Shown one piece after another: positions 4,055 to 29,938 of a stretch of 29,940 bases of DNA. The position numbers were made by a program, and so were the translations under genes. The DNA lies in the IMG/VR virus record IMGVR_UViG_3300027813_002889, positions 1-29,940 of that record; one strand, 5' to 3'. Each line of letters begins with the position of its first letter. The stretch's first letter is position 1. The notes beneath the pieces are model-generated. The model did no database searches, had not been told where the DNA came from, and saw only the letters and a list, made by a program, of their open reading frames with translations. This DNA comes from a virus. Its lineage: Duplodnaviria; Caudoviricetes.

Positions 4055-4086
4055 TCTAACCATATTATTCCGTTTAACCCCACAGA

Positions 4087-4142
4087 TAAATATAGTATCG
4101 GGGAGAATTGTCTCCCTAGTAGTATATTAGGGAGAACAAATG
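4087..4142 (+). promoter_or_regulatory. Late-type promoter followed by a 5' leader with two mutually exclusive hairpins
   Basis: TAAATA 4087-4092. GGGAGA 4101-4106 and the SD-containing TAGGGAGA 4128-4135 both pair with TCTCCC(TA) 4111-4118. Confidence 0.6.
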
Positions 4143-6053
4143 TTTTTAGCGATTCTAACATTCTTGTCTGCATTAACCATTAGTGCAGTAGCAATCTATT
4201 ATAGTGTTGCTGGCCTGGCGGCCATTTTTGCGGCGGCAGTAGTTCCCATTATTGTTATGGGTGTATCATTAGAAGTTGGTAAACTAGTGACGGCTGTTTG
4301 GCTTCATCGCTATTGGGATCGAGCTGTTTGGTGGCTTAAAACATATCTTGCAATTGCTGTAGTTGTTTTAATGTTTATTACTTCAATGGGTATCTTTGGA
4401 TATCTTTCTAAAGCCCACATTGAACAAACAAGTATGAGCATAGAACAAGTAGCTCAAATCGAATCAATTACTGAAAAACTAGCACGTTCAGAAGCAAAAG
4501 TAACTCGTTGGACTGACGAAATTGATCGCTTAATGAAAGGCGAAGACATTCGTGTTGACACGTTAATTGAAAAAGAACAAGCAGAACTAGACAAACTTTA
4601 TAAAAGAATTAACGAAGAAAAAACAGCGGCCAAAGTTGTTACCGCAACAGAGATTGAACTTCAAAATGAAAGACTAAAACAAGCACAATTACGTAAATTT
4701 CAAGATATTAAGGCCGCGAAAGATCGAATGGAAGATTCAACATTTGGTGGCGGTACTCAATATGACAAAGCCGTAGAAGAAGCTAAAGCAAATGAATTAT
4801 CAGTTGCCAGCTCTGCTCAACGTGAAATTAGAAACGTTAACAAAAGATTAAATGAAACATTAGTAGCTATTGATTCTCGTTATGTTGATGAGATTAAATC
4901 TATTAATGATCGAATTCAGAAACTCCGCGGCCAAGCTAACGCAAAAACAGAAGATATTGACGGACGGGTAACAGACTTAGAAGCATTTATAGACAAAGAA
5001 CAACTTAAAGTAGATACTGCTAGAGAAGAGAAAGCAATATTCGAAAAACAATTTAGACAATTAGAAGCAGACGTAGGACCCATTAAATATATTGCTGAGT
5101 TTGTTTATGGTCAAGAGTCTGATGCAGATTTATTAGAAAAAGCTGTACGTTGGGTTATTATTGTTATTATATTTGTATTTGATCCGTTGGCAGTACTTTT
5201 ATTAATAGCAAGTCAGTATTCATTCCAATTTAGAAGAGAAAACATTATAGGTACAGATCCAGACCCAAAGGATGATGGGCCTGATGATAATGGGCCGGAC
5301 GATGACGACCCAAAGGACGACCCTAAGCCCTTTCCACAAGTCTCAGACGGAGACTGGATGTACGATATACCAATAATGCCTGAAGATAAAGATAAAGATG
5401 AGGATCATATTGAACTTCCCAAAAGTATAAGTCATGAACCTGAACAAATGGAACTACCGTTAGAAGAACCCAAAGAAGACATTTATGTAGATCCTAGACA
5501 AATGGAATTTGACTTTTCTGAAAAACCAGAAGAAACTACCAAGTATGATATTTCTAAAGAAGAAGTTGAAGAAATATTAGAAAACATTGAGACGGAGCAA
5601 GTGCCATTTCCTGAAATACCAGCGGCAGTAGTTCAAACTAAGTTATCACAAGCACAAATTAGAAAACTAGATGCAATGGATGAAGACTGGAAAAAAGCTA
5701 AAGCACAATGGAAAGAAGACCATCCTAAGGATACAATTAAAACACAAAAGATTGCATACCTTAATGGTAAGATTGAAGACTTTCCTTGGGAAGGTGATTA
5801 CCAAAGTATGAAAACAGAATCAGAAATAATGCAAGACGAGTTAGAACCAATTGCTACTGAATTAGACGAGGCAATGGAAGAAGTTGATGGCGTAGATAAA
5901 TGGAATGATTTTATTGACAATGCGAACAAGGCGGCCGAAGAAGAAGACTTAGATCAAAAAAAAAAATTCGAATCGACAAACTACTACACAAAAGTAAGCA
6001 ACAAACAAACAAAACAGAAAACACGGGAATTACCAGACGATACACAGAAGTAA
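4140..6053 (+). CDS. Membrane-anchored long coiled-coil protein (DUF4407-like) with acidic C-terminal region; possible -1 extension to 6133
   Basis: Three N-terminal hydrophobic helices (SLEVGKL...ITSMGIFGYLS), long coiled coil, VGPIKYIAE, a further TM (IIFVFDPLAVLLL) and a D/E/P-rich tail. Confidence 0.8.
   Translation: MFLAILTFLSALTISAVAIYYSVAGLAAIFAAAVVPIIVMGVSLEVGKLVTAVWLHRYWDRAVWWLKTYLAIAVVVLMFITSMGIFGYLSKAHIEQTSMSIEQVAQIESITEKLARSEAKVTRWTDEIDRLMKGEDIRVDTLIEKEQAELDKLYKRINEEKTAAKVVTATEIELQNERLKQAQLRKFQDIKAAKDRMEDSTFGGGTQYDKAVEEAKANELSVASSAQREIRNVNKRLNETLVAIDSRYVDEIKSINDRIQKLRGQANAKTEDIDGRVTDLEAFIDKEQLKVDTAREEKAIFEKQFRQLEADVGPIKYIAEFVYGQESDADLLEKAVRWVIIVIIFVFDPLAVLLLIASQYSFQFRRENIIGTDPDPKDDGPDDNGPDDDDPKDDPKPFPQVSDGDWMYDIPIMPEDKDKDEDHIELPKSISHEPEQMELPLEEPKEDIYVDPRQMEFDFSEKPEETTKYDISKEEVEEILENIETEQVPFPEIPAAVVQTKLSQAQIRKLDAMDEDWKKAKAQWKEDHPKDTIKTQKIAYLNGKIEDFPWEGDYQSMKTESEIMQDELEPIATELDEAMEEVDGVDKWNDFIDNANKAAEEEDLDQKKKFESTNYYTKVSNKQTKQKTRELPDDTQK
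5956..5966 (+). other. A11 homopolymer, candidate slippage/frameshift site
   Basis: GATC-A11-TTC. The -1 frame is open from 5918 to TAA 6131-6133 with no start codon. Confidence 0.6.
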
Positions 6054-6140
6054 TTGAGCCTAATCAACAATATGTTCAAAATTCAGAACAGAACCAAGAT
6101 TCTGTTTGGAACAAAATAAAATCTAATAAGTAATTACAAT

Positions 6141-6533
6141 ATGGCACAACCCACTATTAACTTAATTACATCACCAGATAAATTACATTCATCAGAATTA
6201 AGTTTTCTTTTAATTAATCCTAGTAATGTTCTTAAAGACCAATTTAATGATGTAATAAAAAAAGTAAAACGTACAGCTAACTTATATCTGTTTGAAGAAA
6301 CAGAAGGATCTGATATTGAATGGTTACTCGATGTATTAAGCATTGTAGACTATGTTATTCTAGATATTGACAATACTAAAGAAACTGAATGGTTAGTAGG
6401 ATACGTTTTGTCTTTTGATAAAACATATTACTTGACATCACACCCTATTAGAGTGTATAATGTATTAAACAAGAATAGAGTGTTTGACGTAAAGCAAATT
6501 GCTGAAGGAGTAAATTATTTTGCGAAAGTATAA
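6141..6533 (+). CDS. Hypothetical phage protein
   Basis: 130-aa ORF; TAAGTA 8 nt before the ATG and no SD. Confidence 0.75.
   Translation: MAQPTINLITSPDKLHSSELSFLLINPSNVLKDQFNDVIKKVKRTANLYLFEETEGSDIEWLLDVLSIVDYVILDIDNTKETEWLVGYVLSFDKTYYLTSHPIRVYNVLNKNRVFDVKQIAEGVNYFAKV
6432..6461 (+). promoter_or_regulatory. Consensus sigma70 promoter inside the upstream CDS, pointing at bS21 copy 1
   Basis: TTGACA-18-TATAAT. Confidence 0.7.
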
Positions 6534-6762
6534 CGAGAAGTATCGCCAGGAAAAAGGTTTAGAAGTTGTTGTTAAAAACGGCAATGTAGAAGGTGCTCTT
6601 AGAAAACTTAAAAAGAAAATTGCAGAAGATGGGTTAATGATTGAATTGCGTGAGCGTCAACATTATGTAAAGCCCAGTGAAAAACGTGCAAAGGATAAAG
6701 CGGCCGGCAAAGCACGACATGAAAAAATGATAAAAACTCGTCAAGAAAAGGTAGGCTGGTAA
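6520..6762 (+). CDS. rpsU: 30S ribosomal protein bS21 (copy 1)
   Basis: V.V.NGNVE.ALR.LKKK...G...ELRER.HY.KPSEKR; TTG start with SD AAGGAG. Confidence 0.92.
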   Translation: MRKYNEKYRQEKGLEVVVKNGNVEGALRKLKKKIAEDGLMIELRERQHYVKPSEKRAKDKAAGKARHEKMIKTRQEKVGW

Positions 6763-9132: not shown

Positions 9133-11022
9133 ATGAGTAAAATTATTGGAATCGACTTAGGCACAACCAACTCATGTATAGCGATTATGAGTGGTAGTGA
9201 AGGCAAAGTCGTAGAGAACGAAGAAGGCACAAGAACAACACCGTCAGTCGTAGGAATAACTAACGATGGACAACTTGTTGGAGCATCAGCTAAAAGACAA
9301 GCAGTATCAAATCCAGAGAATACTGTTTTTGCAATTAAACGTCTAATGGGTAGAAAATTTAACGATCCAAGTCTTAAAGAAGATATTAAAACTTCACCCT
9401 TTAAAATCATTAAAGCTAAAAACGGTGACGCTTGGGTTAAACTAAAAGATAAAGAATATTCCCCTGCACAGATATCTGCTTTCACATTACAAAAAATGAA
9501 AGAAACAGCAGAAAAATATACAGGATCACCAGTTACAAAAGCAGTAATTACAGTACCTGCATATTTTAATGATTCACAAAGACAAGCAACTAAAGATGCA
9601 GGTAAGATTGCAGGACTTGAAGTTGAACGTATTGTTAACGAACCAACAGCGGCCGCACTTGCTTATGGCTTAGATAAAAAAGAGTCAGGTGTAATTGCAG
9701 TATACGATTTAGGTGGTGGTACATTTGATGTATCTATCCTGGAAATTGGTGGTGGCGTATTTGAAGTTAAAGCAACTAATGGCGATACTGCTCTAGGTGG
9801 CGAAGACTTTGATAAAGTTTTAATTGATTATATTGCAAGTGAATTTAAAAAAGAAGCTGGCATTGAATTAAAACAAGATAAACTCGTAATGCAACGTCTT
9901 AGAGAAGCGGCAGAGAAAGCTAAGATTGAACTTTCATCAACTGTAGCAACTGAGGTTAGTTTACCGTTTATTACTGCTGATGCTAGTGGTCCTAAACACT
10001 TAAATGTAAAAGTTACAAGAGCTAGTTACGAAGCAATGGTTGGAAAACTAATTGAGCGTACACTTGAACCTTGTAAAATAGCTCTTAAGGATTCAGGATA
10101 TAAAATTAGTGATATTGACGAAGTTGTAATGGTTGGCGGAATGACTAGGATGCCTAAGGTACTTGAAGTTGTTGAAAAGTTCTTTGGCAAAGCACCAAAC
10201 AAAAGTGTTAACCCAGATGAAGTTGTTGCTATCGGAGCCGCAATTCAAGGCGGAGTACTTCAAGGAGATGTAACAGACATTCTTCTTTTAGATGTAACAC
10301 CGTTATCATTAGGTATTGAAACACTAGGTGGAGTTACTACACCACTTATTGAAAAGAACACAACAATTCCTACAAAGAAAAGCCAAACGTTTTCAACTGC
10401 TGAAAATAACCAACCATCTGTTACTATTAAAGTTACACAAGGTGAGCGTCAAATGGCCGCAGACAATAAACTACTAGGAAACTTTGACTTACATGAAATT
10501 CCACCAGCACCAAGAGGTACTCCACAGATTGAAGTTACTTTTGATATTGATGCAAATGGAATTGTAAATGTATCAGCTAAAGATAAAGGAACTGGTAAGG
10601 AACAATCAATTCAAATTCAAGCGTCAGGTGGATTAAGTGATGCTGAAATTGATACTATGGTTAAAGATGCTGAATCTAATAAAGAGGCCGATACCAAAAA
10701 ACGTGAGGAAGTCGATGCTAGGAATAGTGCTGACGGACTTGTGTTTACTACTGAAAATTCATTAGAAGAACATAGTGATAAGATATCAGATGAAGATAAG
10801 GCTACTATTGAAACAGCAATTACCGAGTTGAAAGATGCACTTACGGGAACTGACGTTGAAATAATTAAACAAAAAACTCAAAGTCTAAGTGAAGCATCTA
10901 TGAAGCTTGGAGAAGCTATATACAAGAGTCAACAAGAAGAGACTACCTCAGAAGAATCCAAATCAGAAGATAAAAAAGAAGATATCATTGATGCAGAATT
11001 TGAAGAAGTAGACAAAGCATAA
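9133..11022 (+). CDS. dnaK: Molecular chaperone DnaK (Hsp70), alphaproteobacteria-like
   Basis: [25 protein letters not shown], linker [19 protein letters not shown]; IQASGGLSD and SMKLGEAIY...DAEFEEV tail. Confidence 0.98.
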
Positions 11023-11055
11023 GAACGTCATTAAAACACCTCAAGGAGATTATCG

Positions 11056-11367
11056 ATGATAAGTAATGTTATGGACGACGTAGCAATTGATGAAAAAATT
11101 ATACAAAAAATTGATGAGCCAGCTCTCTATAAAGTAATCTTCCTTAACGATAGTGCTACACCTATGGAATTTGTTATAGAAGTACTCATGACAATCTTTA
11201 AACATTCAGAAACTACGGCTAGAGATATAACTGTAAAAATACATGAGGAAGGTTCGGCGGTAGTTGGATTATATACATTCGAAATTGCAGAACAAAAAGG
11301 TGTTGAAGCAACTAATTTGAGTCGCTCGCACGGCTTCCCCTTACAAATTAAAGTGGAGAAGGAATGA
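11056..11367 (+). CDS. clpS: N-degron adaptor ClpS
   Basis: YKVIFLND..TPMEFV, IHEEG.A.VG.Y..EIAE.K, GFPL motifs; SD AAGGAG. Confidence 0.92.
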   Translation: MISNVMDDVAIDEKIIQKIDEPALYKVIFLNDSATPMEFVIEVLMTIFKHSETTARDITVKIHEEGSAVVGLYTFEIAEQKGVEATNLSRSHGFPLQIKVEKE

Positions 11368-11912
11368 GCAATTTAAAAGACCTAACAAAAGAAGTACATC
11401 AAAATGCAGAACGGCAAGAATTTGTAGAAGTTTTGATGTCAGGAAAAATTCATGACGACACTTATGCAATATTCTTAGCTAATCAACATCCTATGTATAA
11501 TGTCCTTGAATCGCTTGCAACAGCTAAAGGTCTATTAGACGGCTTGCCAGGCATCTGTAGGGCTCATGCAATTCATGAAGATTTTAAAGAACTTTGGAAA
11601 CATGACGAAGCGGCACCACTATTAGATGTTACTAAACGATACACAGATCATATTTCAAATATCTCAGACGACAAGACAAAATTGTTTGCACATATCTATA
11701 CACGACATATGGGTGATTTAAGTGGAGGGCGGATGATATCAGGATTTATACCCGGAGAAGGTAGATTATACCAATTCGATGATCCAGATACATTGAAAGC
11801 AAAAATACGTGAACGGCTAACAGATGAAATGGCCGACGAAGCGAAAGTTTGTTTTGCATTTGCCGCCCAAACCTTTAAAGAGATGTTATCGTATGTCAGA
11901 ACAAAAAGTTAA
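11364..11912 (+). CDS. hemO: Heme oxygenase (biliverdin-producing)
   Basis: LKDLTKEVHQNAE (proximal His) and AHIYTRHMGDLSGG distal helix; DEAKVCF. ATGA overlap with clpS. Confidence 0.92.
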   Translation: MSNLKDLTKEVHQNAERQEFVEVLMSGKIHDDTYAIFLANQHPMYNVLESLATAKGLLDGLPGICRAHAIHEDFKELWKHDEAAPLLDVTKRYTDHISNISDDKTKLFAHIYTRHMGDLSGGRMISGFIPGEGRLYQFDDPDTLKAKIRERLTDEMADEAKVCFAFAAQTFKEMLSYVRTKS

Positions 11913-14183: not shown

Positions 14184-14291
14184 ATGCGTTGGCACATTTT
14201 AACAGTAGTAGTATTAATCGCTATGGTTAGTATAACAACACATCTATATGTTTATATGGATGAAGTAATAAAAGGATATTTTATAACATGA
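14184..14291 (+). CDS. 35-aa single-TM small protein (not in the ORF track)
   Basis: SD AAGGAG 14173-14178. MRWHILTVVVLIAMVSITTHLYVYMDEVIKGYFIT; its stop overlaps the pcyX start (ATGA). Confidence 0.7.
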   Translation: MRWHILTVVVLIAMVSITTHLYVYMDEVIKGYFIT

Positions 14292-14983
14292 GTGTATTGT
14301 GGGACAAGTTAATTGAATGTCAAAATGATATAATTGATATATTCGACAATCAATGTAAGGAAATAAACGAGCCAGGTATGGATCATTTTAATCAAGCTGA
14401 CGGCAGTTGGATTAATCGAGTCTGGGCTAATGATAATGTACGGAGAGCTCATATTGATGTAGTTGATGCTCGCGAGTCAAAAGGGCTTTGGATGATGCAT
14501 GTCTGTTGTTTTCCTGTACTAAACAATAACGGACCTATATATGGATTTGACGTAATATCAGGCGAACACAAGATGACCGGTGCCTTCCATGATTTTTCAG
14601 CTTCATCTGGTGGAGAAGACCATCCGTTAGTAGAATGGTATGAACATGCAGTAGAAGAATTTATTCCAAGTAAAAAGCGTGAATTACCTGAATGGGCTAG
14701 GAATATTTTTACACCTAGTATGATTGCCGCAGGTAATGTTAGAAGTGATGACGAAGCTACAGCTATAGTAGATTTAGCAGTAAATAATCTAAAGGTTTAC
14801 TTTGAAAGTATAGGAGAATATACTGGAATGGGAGACCGCGATATAACAGTAGCATCACAAAATTATTATTGTCATAATCAGCAACAAAATCCACATACAC
14901 CACGAGTAATGACTAGCTTAGGGCTTAAAGAAGCTGACGTACAAAAGTTTTGTACAGATATGCTGTTCCCTAAAATAGTATAA
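14288..14983 (+). CDS. pcyX: Ferredoxin-dependent bilin reductase, PcyX type
   Basis: RRAHIDVVD.RESKGLWMMH, GPIYGFD, TGAFHDFS, RELPEWA..IF, MIAAGNV, QNYY...Q..NPHTPRVM.SLG and terminal LFP. Confidence 0.88.
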   Translation: MSVLWDKLIECQNDIIDIFDNQCKEINEPGMDHFNQADGSWINRVWANDNVRRAHIDVVDARESKGLWMMHVCCFPVLNNNGPIYGFDVISGEHKMTGAFHDFSASSGGEDHPLVEWYEHAVEEFIPSKKRELPEWARNIFTPSMIAAGNVRSDDEATAIVDLAVNNLKVYFESIGEYTGMGDRDITVASQNYYCHNQQQNPHTPRVMTSLGLKEADVQKFCTDMLFPKIV

Positions 14984-14994: not shown

Positions 14995-16092
14995 ATGCGA
15001 TTTTATGAATTTAAACAGTCTCTTAACGAGTACTCAGACTTAGACCAAGAAAAAGAAGAAATCCTAGCTAAGATTTCAGGTCTAACTGCGTCAAATCCCG
15101 ACGAGGCAGAACTACTAGACAGAATTTATAAACTTTTAAATAAAACTCAAATAGGTACTAATATCGAAGCTGGATTTAATGCCACACTTGGCGATGAACA
15201 ATTTAATCCAGCTGAGCTTAAAAGAGTTAAACAAGAAATAACAAAGATTATTGCTAGTGTAGAAACTGATTACAAATCATTAAATGCTTTTATAAAACGC
15301 ATGGAAGCAGGTGGAGTAGTTAATATTTCAGCTTTACAAAAGCCGGTATCATCATTTCAGGAAGTATTTGGTGACAATAGCGGAATACAAGCATTTAAGG
15401 CACTAGCTAGTTACGGTGTTGGTAGAAAGCAAAAAGGCCCAGGAGAATATGCACTTGCATGTTTAAGTAATCAGATTAAACTAGCAGACGGCGAAGGCGA
15501 CATAGAAGTTAAGGGCATTGGAAAAGTAGAACTAAAAGCGGCAATGAGTAAATCCGGTGGACGCATTGGTTACGGCGGCGGCTCACAAAAAAATAAAGTT
15601 GATGTTCTTAATCAATACAAGGATATAATTCCTACAGTGATGGAATCTCTTGCCAAAAATGCTAAGGGAGGATCATTAGGATTTCCAAAATTCCTACCTG
15701 CATTAAATGTTGACCTTCCAGTAACTGGAGGCGGATCTAATCCTAAAGCACTAGGGCCAGATAATCAAAAAAATCGTAAACTGATTATGCAAAGCCTTAT
15801 GGGGATGGACATGGAGAATTATGCTGACAGCGTTGCACAATTTATTAGCTCAAGTGAAGATACTAATGCTTGCGAAAGTGCATATTTAAAAGCTAACTTT
15901 GAGTGGTATAAAAATAGAGATCACTTTGATGCATTACTACTAATGAGTGTACAAGGACAAAAAACTATGATGATAAAATCTGGAGAAGATCTAATAAAAG
16001 CTAGACCAATGTTATCAAGTTTATCTATTAGTATTATTCCAACACAAGCAGGTGCTGGACGTGAACAATGGGCACAATTAACTCCGAGATAA
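14995..16092 (+). CDS. Putative PD-(D/E)xK-fold nuclease-like protein with a capsid-targeting-like N-terminus
   Basis: GPGEYAL...GDIEV...VELK; N-terminus MRFYEFKQSLNE. Confidence 0.5.
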   Translation: MRFYEFKQSLNEYSDLDQEKEEILAKISGLTASNPDEAELLDRIYKLLNKTQIGTNIEAGFNATLGDEQFNPAELKRVKQEITKIIASVETDYKSLNAFIKRMEAGGVVNISALQKPVSSFQEVFGDNSGIQAFKALASYGVGRKQKGPGEYALACLSNQIKLADGEGDIEVKGIGKVELKAAMSKSGGRIGYGGGSQKNKVDVLNQYKDIIPTVMESLAKNAKGGSLGFPKFLPALNVDLPVTGGGSNPKALGPDNQKNRKLIMQSLMGMDMENYADSVAQFISSSEDTNACESAYLKANFEWYKNRDHFDALLLMSVQGQKTMMIKSGEDLIKARPMLSSLSISIIPTQAGAGREQWAQLTPR

Positions 16093-17166
16093 CTTTTCTA
16101 AACGCTTCTCTAAGCGTTTTAATTCACTAAACGCAAACTTAACAAGTACTTCATAATTATAATCAACTATCTCTTGCATTTTATTATAGTGCTTTGGCAC
16201 TTTACTTAATAACTTTTCTGCTGTTGATACAAGCATATTTGAATATGCATCTGTAATATCCCAATTCGAATCGTATCCTTCATCTATAAAATCATCAAAC
16301 GTTTTAAAGCCGTTTGCACGAAGATGTGCTAATGCAGGGAAAGATGCTCTTATAACAAATAGTGATCTATTTAAAATTGGTCTATATATTTTTTCTGTAA
16401 AGAATACAGAGCTATCAGTTTCGTGTGTTTCACAAATAAAACTTACAGTTGATTCGTCATATGCCTTAGTAGAGCTACCCCAACCTTGACTTGATATTCC
16501 TTGATCTAAATTAAATGTTTTTGCTTCGTCTATTGGACCTTGGTGTTTTTTAATAAACTGTTTTAACTGCGGATTATCAGTTTCAAAGGTTCCAAGAAAA
16601 CTATATAATGTAGTATCTGTTAACTTGCTCTTAAAAAAAGCTTCTATTATTTTACTTCTTGAAGGTTTATTAACTTTTCCTAATAGAAGATTACATCTAT
16701 TAATCCTTTTTGATAATAGCTTATTACTTATAGGTGTATGGAATGTAAGATGTCTTATTACTGCCGAAATTGCAAAGAAATCAATAAAAATTATACTTTG
16801 AAAATCTCGCATTCCGCTTTTATTCATTACAGTTAGAATATCTTTAGACTTTATACCATGTTGTTTTATATCAGCTACTTTTTTAAAATATTTTTTTTCT
16901 TGTATACCATTTTCATATGCTATGTCTATAATAACCTTTGTTGCAAGATTTTTATTTTTTCTATAATTTATAATTCTTGCTGGTAAAATAGAATTTTCTA
17001 TATTAGAATCTATTATAAAAAGGGTGCCGTTATACTTCTTTGCTTCTTTAGTAGTCTTAAGAAATTTTTCTTGTGGAAGTATTCCTGAGAGAAGGTTGCA
17101 ATTTACATATCCAAATACATTTTCAAATCCAGATTTATTAAGTTCAAAAAACTTATAATTAATCAT
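16078..17166 (-). CDS. Hypothetical protein, possibly glycosyltransferase-like
   Basis: 362-aa ORF with C-terminal ICET...FFTEKIYRPI...L..NGFKTF...DEGYD pattern; conspicuously AT-rich. Confidence 0.6.
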   Translation of the reverse strand: MINYKFFELNKSGFENVFGYVNCNLLSGILPQEKFLKTTKEAKKYNGTLFIIDSNIENSILPARIINYRKNKNLATKVIIDIAYENGIQEKKYFKKVADIKQHGIKSKDILTVMNKSGMRDFQSIIFIDFFAISAVIRHLTFHTPISNKLLSKRINRCNLLLGKVNKPSRSKIIEAFFKSKLTDTTLYSFLGTFETDNPQLKQFIKKHQGPIDEAKTFNLDQGISSQGWGSSTKAYDESTVSFICETHETDSSVFFTEKIYRPILNRSLFVIRASFPALAHLRANGFKTFDDFIDEGYDSNWDITDAYSNMLVSTAEKLLSKVPKHYNKMQEIVDYNYEVLVKFAFSELKRLEKRLEKLSRS

Positions 17167-17522
17167 TAAATACCTGCTAGAGTTATAATAATATAATATC
17201 CTAAATAATGAAACATTTGATCAACCATATTTAATAGCCAATACTTACGTTCGTTTGCCACCCATCCAAAATATTCTCGTATATGGGTCTTAGAATAGTC
17301 TGTATGCCAGTGTAGTATGTAATCAAGGAAGCCAAGTGCTACAGCAAGCTCTAAGGGCCCGTATAGAGCAAGTATAAGCACAGTTAAAGCGCCATGCGGT
17401 ATATAATGTTGCTGATGTGCTTTCCATCCGAAGTATTGAAGTTTAATATTCCCTAACCCAAAAGGTTGCATACCCAAATCAACTATGGCATGTTTAATCA
17501 TCAATAAAAGAAATATTTCCAA
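17166..17522 (-). CDS. DUF3307-like membrane protein
   Basis: KH..D...Q, H...H, HW..D..K and DQ..H motifs; TTG start with SD GGAG; TAAATA on the minus strand at 17547-17542. Confidence 0.75.
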   Translation of the reverse strand: MEIFLLLMIKHAIVDLGMQPFGLGNIKLQYFGWKAHQQHYIPHGALTVLILALYGPLELAVALGFLDYILHWHTDYSKTHIREYFGWVANERKYWLLNMVDQMFHYLGYYIIITLAGI

Positions 17523-17561
17523 CTTATGTCTCCGTTCGCTCTATTTAACCAAACATAGCTC

Positions 17562-17590
17562 TTGACATATACTAAGTATGATAGTAAACT
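17562..17590 (+). promoter_or_regulatory. sigma70-type promoter
   Basis: TTGACA-17-TAAACT. Confidence 0.6.
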
Positions 17591-17629
17591 ATTATTAAAA
17601 ATTAGGTAATAATTTATCTAGGAGTAAGT

Positions 17630-17821
17630 ATGTTACATAAAGTTAGTGAAGTATGTGATCTAATCAACGTAATACACGAGAAAAGTGAGGAATGTCGGAA
17701 GTTAAAATATGATAACCCAAAAACACCTGAAAGAGATCAGGAAATTGATATTTTAATTGCAGACATTCAATCGATGTGTAGACAAGTTGCTGAAGATAAG
17801 CAACCCTACGAAAAAAGATAG
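17630..17821 (+). CDS. Hypothetical small helical protein
   Basis: SD AGGAG and its own promoter; 63 aa. Confidence 0.7.
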   Translation: MLHKVSEVCDLINVIHEKSEECRKLKYDNPKTPERDQEIDILIADIQSMCRQVAEDKQPYEKR

Positions 17822-18219
17822 CTAGTAGGGGTCGTCGGCTTTGTTGTTGCCAATCCAATAAAGTCTTTAACAAATACAAAATGAGTGCTTAATGAGTCAA
17901 ACAGTTCAGTATTCAGACCTGTTGTCATTTGACCATAACTAGATTTGCCAATTTCTACATAGTATTCTGTATTACCAAATTCAGGAAATACACCTGTAAC
18001 AAAAAGACACGTGTCGCCTAGTTCTTTAGCATTACGACTTGACTTAATTGTTAAGTAAGATTCAGCAAAGGACCTTTTAGGTAGGAAATCGTTATGGTCA
18101 ATATGGCTTGCTAAAAGCATAACAATGTATGCTTCGATCTCTTCCGGCAAGCATACGCCATTATGTTCCTGAGTTTCTTTTATTACGCGATAAAATGCTG
18201 TTTGATAAACATCCCTCAT
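17806..18219 (-). CDS. Hypothetical phage protein
   Basis: 137-aa ORF (ELGDTCLFVTGVFP); TAAGTA 4 nt before the ATG on the minus strand. Confidence 0.75.
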   Translation of the reverse strand: MRDVYQTAFYRVIKETQEHNGVCLPEEIEAYIVMLLASHIDHNDFLPKRSFAESYLTIKSSRNAKELGDTCLFVTGVFPEFGNTEYYVEIGKSSYGQMTTGLNTELFDSLSTHFVFVKDFIGLATTKPTTPTSYLFS

Positions 18220-20490: not shown

Positions 20491-20688
20491 ATGGAAGTAA
20501 TAGTAAGAAATGGAAACGTAGAGAAAGCATTACGTGTCTTAAAAAATAAGATAAAAAAAGATGGCCTTATGACAGAACTACGTGAACGGATGCACTACGT
20601 TAAACCTAGTGAAAAACGAAGACTCGCTAAAAAACGTGGCATTAAACGTGTTGCTAAAGAACAAGCTAAACGTGACGAACTAACGTAG
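20491..20688 (+). CDS. rpsU: 30S ribosomal protein bS21 (copy 2)
   Basis: MEVIVRNGNVEKALRVLK.K...G...ELRER.HY.KPSEKRR; SD AAGGAG. Confidence 0.93.
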   Translation: MEVIVRNGNVEKALRVLKNKIKKDGLMTELRERMHYVKPSEKRRLAKKRGIKRVAKEQAKRDELT

Positions 20689-28982: not shown

Positions 28983-29384
28983 ATGAAAAAGATATTTTTA
29001 ATATTAATTTGTCTAGTCTTTTCGCCTTCTGTTTTTGCAGAAGAAATTGACCCAACAAATAAATTTACAAGTAAAACAGACTTCTTTCGAAGCATGTCAT
29101 TTTGGTCTTGGTCAGATATACCTGAAACTATTACAACGTATATGGATACAGATCATGATGGAAAATTAGATGTTGTTTGGGCATTTCCCTTAATCAACGT
29201 ATTAGAATTGCCATCTTGTAGAGCTGAAGATGAACCTCTAGAACAAGAAGGCACCATGACATTTTCTACTTGTCATATTAACGAAGTTCGCAGTCCAATA
29301 CTTTATATAGTATCATCTAAAGGATGGCATTGCCATACTTGTCCATACCTAAGAATGGATAAGAACTCTGTTATAGTTCATTAA
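28983..29384 (+). CDS. Secreted hypothetical protein with an EF-hand-like loop
   Basis: Sec signal peptide (MKK...VFA); DTDHDGKLD; four Cys in the mature part. Confidence 0.65.
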   Translation: MKKIFLILICLVFSPSVFAEEIDPTNKFTSKTDFFRSMSFWSWSDIPETITTYMDTDHDGKLDVVWAFPLINVLELPSCRAEDEPLEQEGTMTFSTCHINEVRSPILYIVSSKGWHCHTCPYLRMDKNSVIVH

Positions 29385-29938
29385 GTTTTAATAATATAAT
29401 TTAAAATCAATGTTGGTTGGATGTTAACGTGGGCCGCACCGCCACCTGTTGTTCCTGTAGTTGCCGCACTTGATCCTCCAGAAACATCAATACCAGTTGT
29501 ATTATTTGTGTCACCTGTATCTGGTGAGTAGTTGTAACTATGCTCATGAGCAGGTATTTGTGATTCAGTAAGTGTTACCGTTTCAGCACCACCACTTGAC
29601 CCTAGTACATCACCATCAATGCCGCCTATTCCGCCAGCGCCTGTTAGTCTGTCAGCTGATACGCTACCCATGTCGTCTTGTCCAGCAATAGTACGACCAC
29701 GTAAATCTGGTATATTAAAAGTTGTTGATCCGTCACCAACTCCGTATACTTCTGCTAGTACTGTAAATAAGCCTGCGTATGTTGTTCTTAGAACAGCTTG
29801 TCCATAACAAAGAAGCCAACCTGTAGGAGCAGTGATACCTGCAAATGCTATAATAGAACCTGTTGGATTAGTTCCTAAATCAACGTATGTCTTAACTGCT
29901 TTTTCTGTTGGAACTGCTGAATCACTATTACCTGCTAA
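29381..29938 (-). CDS. Tail fibre protein 3' end with phage tail-collar domain (continues beyond the window)
   Basis: Frame open to the window edge: SDSAVPTEKAVKTYVD, PTGSIIAFAG..AP.GWLLC.G...GDGSTTFNIPDLRGR, GGAETVTLT..QIPAHEH, NIQP...LNYIIK. Confidence 0.9.
   Translation of the reverse strand, partial: LAGNSDSAVPTEKAVKTYVDLGTNPTGSIIAFAGITAPTGWLLCYGQAVLRTTYAGLFTVLAEVYGVGDGSTTFNIPDLRGRTIAGQDDMGSVSADRLTGAGGIGGIDGDVLGSSGGAETVTLTESQIPAHEHSYNYSPDTGDTNNTTGIDVSGGSSAATTGTTGGGAAHVNIQPTLILNYIIKT

Follow-up and report, generated by a model that had tools for sequence, protein, structure and literature searches.

The locus and its genes

The window, by which is meant the whole stretch of 29,940 nucleotides that was analysed, is a linear virus record (8% complete), and all the features described below lie on its + strand. 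The gene under study (4140..6053) encodes a protein of 637 aa with three N-terminal hydrophobic helices, a long helical hairpin, a fourth hydrophobic helix, and an acidic C-terminal region that is predicted to be cytoplasmic, the topology being deduced from hydrophobicity; residues 1-367 give an all-helical model (pLDDT 79.6, pTM 0.37). A conserved module, WK..HP...G.I...PW (5625..5813), recognized by alignment and by an HMM match, precedes a run of eleven A (A11, 5956..5966), the putative slip site, which was followed in the sequence, in DNA contigs, and by resampling. After the run, frame 0 continues for 28 aa (FESTNYYTKVSNKQ...; 5967..6053), which form the tail of the short isoform, and the −1 frame (5918..6133) would be translated from about 5966 following a slip, adding a tail of 55 aa that holds TEVIEP and YVQNSEQ..SVWNKI (motif at 6071).

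The next gene (6141..6533) encodes a protein of 130 aa, modelled with a flavodoxin-like fold of the NDT/receiver type (pLDDT 88.2), whose best structural match is 4mcj_A (Z 10.3, rmsd 3.4, 124 aligned). The remaining neighbours are lipoprotein-like genes and rpS21, with no tail operon, and further genes that, from their translations, we take to be guaC-like, Hsp20-like, and DnaK-like. The T4-late promoter consensus is the basis on which two motifs of this region are read. The first, ATAAGTA (6126..6132), lies across the −1 stop, 8 nt ahead of the ATG that follows, and a motif of its type is found at the tail end in 23 of the 29 family genes with a putative slip site; it is likely to be a T4-late-type promoter, and its position over the stop would explain the terminal N-K-stop of the long tail. 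The second, ATAAATA (4086), belongs to a segment (4086..4139) that ends in a hairpin (4108-4139; z −6.4) pairing the Shine-Dalgarno of the 637-aa gene, with similar arms in 9 close genes. A late-type motif stands upstream of 75 of 137 family starts.

The 637-aa protein has no match above cut-off in Pfam, PHROGs, or NCBIfam, and matches no PHROG tail family; its Atlas matches are unnamed viral clusters, and fold searches of residues 1-367 returned uncharacterised phage relatives and generic coiled coils. One match bears the UniRef name DUF4407, and none of 35 members matches Pfam DUF4407 at E 0.01. A relationship with the tetraspanins was considered and rejected: PF00335 is weakly present in 29 of the 35 members, the protein of the window reaching 20-21 bits against a cut-off of 32.1, and only the 3+1 layout of helices is alike. 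The hallmark of tetraspanins is a cysteine motif in the large loop, and this protein contains no cysteine at all.

Relatives of the gene occur on contigs of up to 382 kb; among five family contigs, the T4-type gp23 is present in four and the RNA polymerase beta subunit in none, two of the contigs being at least 90% complete. The source is for these reasons most likely a T4-like giant marine phage that would be transcribed by the polymerase of its host. Shorter homologues without these tails are found in cultured phages and in Bdellovibrio and Polynucleobacter genomes.

The A11 run and the open −1 frame

The first-pass annotation had described an A11 run near the end of the 637-aa gene, a start-less −1 frame filling the 87-nt gap that follows, and a +1 frame closing within some ten codons, and in all these respects it was accurate, the translation included. 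The −1 frame has no stop from 5918 to the TAA at 6131-6133, contains no ATG, GTG, or TTG, and ends 7 nt short of the ATG at 6141, while the +1 frame meets a stop 10 codons past the run; one extra A gives a product of 664 aa, as against 637 aa unshifted. The run has TC directly on its 5′ side, with A_AAA_AAA present and A_AAA_AAG absent in phase, and no other run of A or T in the window reaches nine. By itself the run is unremarkable, because 2.0 runs of A9 or longer are expected from synonymous resampling in the + strand ORFs of the window, where one is seen; at this particular site codon usage alone would be likely to produce one (P 0.63). The open −1 frame, on the other hand, is beyond what chance would give: with the frame-0 protein kept unchanged, 3,000 synonymous resamplings of its tail lead to P = 0.002.

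Homopolymers are error-prone, and the evidence comes from assembled contigs, so that a miscalled run has to be weighed, the true gene then having A12 and a single ORF. The A11 is spanned without indel by contigs from 4 of 4 DNA runs, belonging to four studies, although these are contigs and not raw reads, in which rare variants would be invisible, and at least one of the runs may be the source of the window itself; the run is again A11 in two other metagenome loci, L106 and L108. With the −1 relation recurring in 29 distinct genes whose runs are of 9, 10, or 11, and with the frame-0 tail conserved as a peptide, as described below, the assembly error that the first-pass annotation had kept in view is scarcely credible.

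Downstream of the run, folding gave −0.6 kcal/mol and z 0.39 (5967-6030), and z −0.99 for the longer segment (5967-6110), which agrees with the earlier remark that no clear stimulator hairpin is to be seen there; folding of the site gave no 5′ hairpin either, and no Shine-Dalgarno match of at least four bases lies upstream of it. Contigs from four of the six RNA runs listed cover 4140-4385, 4480-4613, 4713-5081, and 5691-5892, together with the next gene; none of them spans the A11, and they are not proof of expression.

Conservation of the run and of both tails

The family was assembled with locus queries taken from the N-terminal domain, the next gene, the module upstream of the run, the domain of the sister group, and the DNA pattern of YxQNxEQ, none of which included the A run or the frame-0 tail. 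This gave 322 sequences, 212 of them with the fourth helix (TM4), and from these 140 distinct and complete 3′ ends. L107, which has the length of the window, does not count as an independent locus. The YxQNxEQ..W tail is present in 50 of the 140, in frame 0 in 21 cases and in the −1 frame in 29, which will be called slip genes. All 29 carry a run of A9 or longer inside the open −1 frame (20 A9, 8 A10, 1 A11), and these variants differ by substitution, leaving the −1 relation unchanged; the run and both frames, whose absence from homologues had been named at the outset as a refutation of the two isoforms, are thus kept in all 29. Summing the resamplings, about 1.0 open −1 frame would be expected among the slip genes given their frame-0 proteins, as against the 29 seen, and among 369 upstream control windows the −1 frame is open in 26. 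Such counts overstate independence, because the slip genes are related and form some five or six clades. Genome bins yielded two more phage-like contigs, in which an A9 or A10 leads to the tail in the −1 frame, and in one locus (L323) the run lies further upstream, so that a slip adds two modules.

The two tails are both conserved as peptides, each with third-position bias in its own frame. In all 29 slip genes the run is followed by the frame-0 tail motif, which was matched in none of the 21 in-frame genes; in two loci, L206 and L215, a variant of it and the long motif are arranged in tandem. Its variation at codon positions 1, 2, and 3 is 3, 5, and 13 (14 genes), and that of the −1 tail, counted in its own frame, is 12, 13, and 24; within the latter, Q-N-x-E-Q is invariant in 40 aligned tails. 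If the −1 tail were the relic of an old frameshift mutation, no longer made, and the run plain lysine codons, the lysine-rich and A-rich sequence and the ease with which codon usage yields an A9 at the site of the window would be accounted for, but not the −1 frame that is open back to the run in all 29 genes where about one is expected, nor the invariant motif with its third-position bias, nor an arrangement that is met on either side of the deepest split in the tree of tail-bearing genes; we consider this origin most improbable.

For a quick tree of the family 40 rows were left out, namely 39 near-duplicates and L074; the tree in question, a quick one of 38 tail-bearing genes, requires at least five changes between the slip and in-frame states. 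Slip genes stand on both sides of its deepest split, and a single slip clade is rejected (AU p 1e-59), which fits with one ancestral slip followed by repeated fixation in frame and fits likewise with repeated gains. So many switches might also be expected of a contingency at the level of DNA, in which slippage during replication would generate a minority of A12 genomes making only the long form, the two tails thus residing in different virions, and variants of this kind do exist among 120 listed protein clusters, where P0049 is the fused long form of a slip-type gene and P0048 ends in the +1 frame. Each of these, however, rests on a single contig, the A11 is read in 4 of 4 DNA runs, the frame-0 tail closes 110 of the 120 listed clusters (a list that leans that way, since the query contained that tail), and in most of the true in-frame relatives the difference lies in a lost overlap segment and not in the gain of one A. 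A contingency of this type is therefore regarded as very unlikely.

Two forms are not universally required, because the 21 relatives with the tail in frame are without an A9 leading into an extended −1 frame, as are the 7 homologues from the cultured phages Mosig, XacN1, immuto, RAS14, Mel-JY01, SCTP-2, and Xoo-sp13, among which no cultured model was found. Internal runs of A8 or longer, a sort of mirror site, are present in 12 of the 21 in-frame-tail genes, at numbers close to synonymous expectation (A8, 8 against 7.7; A9 or longer, 5 against 3.2); they stand out only against the depleted background described below, and are kept as a lead.

The same step in other clades

An alternative terminal module of about 90 aa (GD.F.R.D..P..V.K), referred to as the B module, for which no convincing Pfam or PDB match was obtained, closes 65 other genes of the family, in frame in 46 cases, in the −1 frame in 13, and as a separate ORF in 6. 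Eleven of the 13 have an A9, one an A8, and one (L138) has no run in that frame, the single miss of the set, which in comparison with L149 appears to be a simple break. A further 7 family genes have A8 or A9 just before the stop, with −1 tails of 70-119 codons. Taken over the whole family, these counts indicate that cytoplasmic modules have been attached in three ways: in frame, by a slip, or as separate genes.

At 10 of 12 sites of the B-module sister group a hairpin of 5-6 bp abuts the 5′ edge of the A9, with one two-sided compensatory change. The same hairpin may also be read as an SD-like AGG(T/A) placed 9 nt before the run, and most of this group has a Shine-Dalgarno match of 4-5 bases.

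Polymerase or ribosome

The same two isoforms could be made from a uniform mRNA by −1 ribosomal frameshifting, or by ribosomes sliding on the lysine codons of A_AAA_AAA. The efficient form of the bacterial −1 heptamer is A_AAA_AAG, an internal Shine-Dalgarno acts on a −1 shift from about 10-14 nt upstream. Ribosomes reportedly slide on AAA runs (PMC4363877), which is to be counted in favour of this explanation. So are the extension in the −1 frame only, the in-phase A_AAA_AAA at every site, the SD-like AGG(T/A) of the B-module group, and the A_AAA_AAG that is present in phase at 19 of 20 phase-2 sites and at the three sites that have only an A8. Some phage shifts, moreover, proceed without a stimulator, according to a review (PMC5009743).

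The length of the runs points in the other direction. All 29 slip genes have a run of at least nine, where codon usage would give about 12.8 (sum), and this floor, in a situation where seven bases would suffice for the ribosome, matches the hybrid of 9-10 bp and the nine-base rule for slippage (PMC5009743 and PMC1088944), and is counted for the polymerase. The sites occupy all three codon phases (7, 21, and 20 sites), and in 16 of the 21 phase-1 sites, the window included, A_AAA_AAG is absent although it could be reached by synonymous change. The codon that starts with the ninth A may specify T, R, K, or N, and TC precedes the run in 21 of 21 phase-1 and 6 of 8 phase-2 tail genes; both the ninth A and the 5′ TC persist where amino acids and phases differ. 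Folding on the 3′ side beats the null in only 1 of the 29 slip genes, and the site of the window itself has neither 3′ structure nor Shine-Dalgarno.

The genomic background is consistent with this. In 588 neighbouring ORFs (337,890 nt) A6 is found 304 times against 303 expected, A8 9 times against 35.4, and A9 or longer once against 25.5; T9 or longer is not found, against 4.5 expected, and the avoidance of T9 as well as A9 speaks against a ribosomal cause. A drop near nine is the mark of slippage-prone runs for Baranov (2005), where it is also stated that A9/T9 depletion cannot separate slippage in transcription from slippage in replication (PMC1088944). In five related contigs (838,868 bp), selected because they contain a site, there are 12 distinct A or T runs of nine or more, of which 4 are sites of the family, 2 represent a second shared A9/−1 site in a gene with a virion-protein match, and 6 are without such a pattern.

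From the sequences, then, it is very likely that recoding at the A11 is real, conserved, and functional, and recoding of the mRNA by one route or the other has a high probability. That the A11 is a conserved recoding site at which the polymerase adds one A to part of the transcripts is probable, the comparative evidence being on its side, while an exclusively ribosomal route appears rather unlikely; polymerase and ribosome may both act, in different clades. The transcriptional slippage that had been favoured at the outset thus remains a preference, backed by comparison among relatives; the two isoforms of 637 and about 664 aa that had been proposed are supported by the A11 in DNA and by the conservation in homologues.

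Proposed mechanism and role

If slippage by the polymerase is accepted, the RNA polymerase of the host would add one extra A to a share of the T4-like late transcripts, and two products would result, a 637-aa protein with the frame-0 tail and a 664-aa protein with the YxQNxEQ..W tail. Both forms would be located in the inner membrane, exposing a long coiled-coil loop on the outer side and the tails to the cytoplasm, and the slip would decide what fraction of the subunits bears the terminal docking motif, about one in four or five if the site behaves like that of tssM1. By analogy with TssM1, we infer that the protein could be a late inner-membrane scaffold composed of subunits with either tail, in a ratio fixed by the slip.

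As to what might be docked, the 130-aa protein with the NDT/receiver fold is a candidate partner because it travels with the long tail: by a loose motif match, its gene comes directly after 49 of the 50 tail-bearing family genes and after none of the 65 B-module genes. That the YxQNxEQ..W motif binds this neighbour is speculative. Shared descent could give the same co-occurrence of long tail and 130-aa gene.

A broader picture may be sketched, which we put forward as tentative and rather doubtful as a whole: slippage by RNA polymerase would be a routine isoform switch in T4-like giant phages, where A9 would be purged and reserved for at least two gene families, with a hairpin in the nascent RNA as stimulator in one clade; the membrane family would have moved repeatedly among in-frame, slip, and separate-gene attachment, its long tail docking the NDT/receiver-fold neighbour; and this would be the first well-conserved phage case found by the literature searches.

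Novelty and meaning

Literature searches, covering main texts, found no report of recoding in this membrane-protein family. Frameshift and slippage terms have no matches in the main text of three jumbo-phage papers (10.64898/2026.10.24.761521, PMC7824862, PMC13282480), and passages of PMC10861913 have nothing to add. Recoding in phages, as reviewed, is ribosomal and almost wholly a matter of tail and capsid genes. To these the present site, a poly-A run conserved in a membrane-protein family that is widespread among giant aquatic phages, brings a new class of gene, and polymerase slippage is probably a mechanism little documented in phages. There is also a practical consequence, in that gene callers miss the long form: among the 120 closest catalogue proteins listed, the 110 already mentioned end in the short tail, and in the B-module relatives the missed part is an extension of 200 residues with a conserved domain. 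Finally, the natural series offered by the family (A8 to A11, three phases, with or without a 5′ hairpin, in frame or split) constitutes a test set for distinguishing slips of the polymerase from those of the ribosome.

Comparison with known systems

One parallel among phages is the methyltransferase CPt10_0091 of a Campylobacter phage, also T4-like, in which the frame is broken in a poly-A tract and rescue by transcriptional slippage was suggested; unlike the present case, it is a single gene and a passing suggestion, which neither documents conservation nor involves a second functional tail (PMC2853527). The lambda G/GT pair, which the first-pass annotation had invoked, is likewise a phage gene with two C-terminal forms made by a −1 step at a set ratio, but the step is ribosomal and of low level, and concerns a soluble chaperone in a tail operon (PMC5009743), whereas here the gene of a four-helix membrane protein, in a T4-like phage, has lipoprotein, rpS21, and chaperone genes for neighbours. 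Lambda is a poor model because the protein has four TM helices and no tail genes adjoin it, and T4 is said to lack G-T shifting (PMC5009743).

In the Roseiflexus IS630 a nascent hairpin abuts the slip site, as it does in 10 of 12 B-module relatives, although the motif is of the U5C5 type and not A9, and the site of the window is without such a hairpin (PMC5009743). The Shigella spa13 gene resembles the present one in that slippage yields a C-terminal extension ending at the next gene (PMC5009743); its slippage affects the expression of spa32 by overlap, while here the extension ends 7 nt short, and coupling to the next gene may be unneeded because that gene has its own promoter-like motif. In the dnaX of Thermus thermophilus, the source of tau and gamma, slippage on an A9 gives two products with no stimulator needed (PMC5009743, PMC1088944), but there the slip truncates, both shifted frames stopping at once, and here it is the unshifted form that is shorter, the shifted frame carrying a conserved motif.

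The nearest likeness is with tssM1 of Citrobacter rodentium and tssM3 of Yersinia pseudotuberculosis, where an A11 shortly before the stop of an inner-membrane protein leads, by an added A, to a long form; in tssM1 the efficiency of slippage is 20-25%, both forms and their ratio are needed, and a relative uses the run in reverse, to make the short form (PMC4256274). The tssM1 case is proven by experiment, and the site of the window is known from sequence; tssM1 is, besides, a bacterial type VI secretion gene with no homology seen, in which a large domain is switched instead of tails of 28 and 55 residues. Since slippage in the gene of a membrane protein had been described in C. rodentium tssM1 (PMC4256274), the initial remark that recoding was not known to be described in this class of gene needs correction, and what may be said in its place is that the type of mechanism is known, from tssM1 and from the dnaX of T. 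thermophilus, and that the gene family is likely to be new to it.

Arrangement of the C-terminal modules

In the family of the 637-aa membrane-protein gene, the cytoplasmic modules are also found outside the gene itself, as one or two separate ORFs on its 3′ side (loci L016, L025, L030, L031 and L035, and also L019), and at these split-module loci stop-start junctions take the place of the slip. Among the genes that carry the tail in frame, internal runs occur as A8 (L017, L040, L043, L077, L221) or as A9 (L127, L167, which the tree places within the slip genes), and all seven encode a short, basic tail in the −1 frame, with KKR[FY][RK].IGR in the five A8 genes. This could be a mirror arrangement; these internal runs show no excess over the synonymous null.

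In the relatives with the alternative B module, a hairpin of 5–6 bp adjoins the 5′ edge of the A9 at 10 of the 12 sites, namely L056 (3408–3431), L060 (4948–4971), L061 (4969–4992), L080 (3315–3338) and six other loci. In L080 both arms are altered, a two-sided change. This hairpin is a candidate nascent-RNA stimulator of slippage.

Genomic context and related genes

Upstream of the 637-aa gene (window 4086–4139), an ATAAATA motif is followed by a hairpin that pairs the Shine-Dalgarno (z −6.4) and has an alternative pairing with a GGGAGA lying upstream, an arrangement conserved within the close clade. Tail-bearing family genes are almost always followed by a 130-aa gene of an unnamed family (6141–6533, +), whose product has a confident flavodoxin-like predicted model, the best structural match being an NDT-like protein.

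The window also carries host-type metabolic and chaperone cargo: two rpS21-like genes (6520–6762, confirmed by family search, and 20491–20688), DnaK-like and ClpS-like genes (9133–11367), what we take to be a heme-oxygenase-like gene (11364–11912) and, by family search, a PcyA-like gene (14288–14983). The plus-strand run is broken by a short block of minus-strand ORFs (16078–18219, −), with lower GC and reversed skew; a further ORF (29381–29938, −), presumably tail-collar-like by motif, is incomplete, cut by the window end.

Short homologues of the membrane domain are found in cellular genomes, in Bdellovibrio and Polynucleobacter (for example L372:2968–3753 and L350:2989–4020), with many Bdellovibrionales loci among L351–L400.

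A second gene, common to L416 (1171–2411, −) and L412, likewise combines an A9 with a start-independent −1 tail, of 112–113 aa, and weakly matches phrog_14154, a virion structural protein family.
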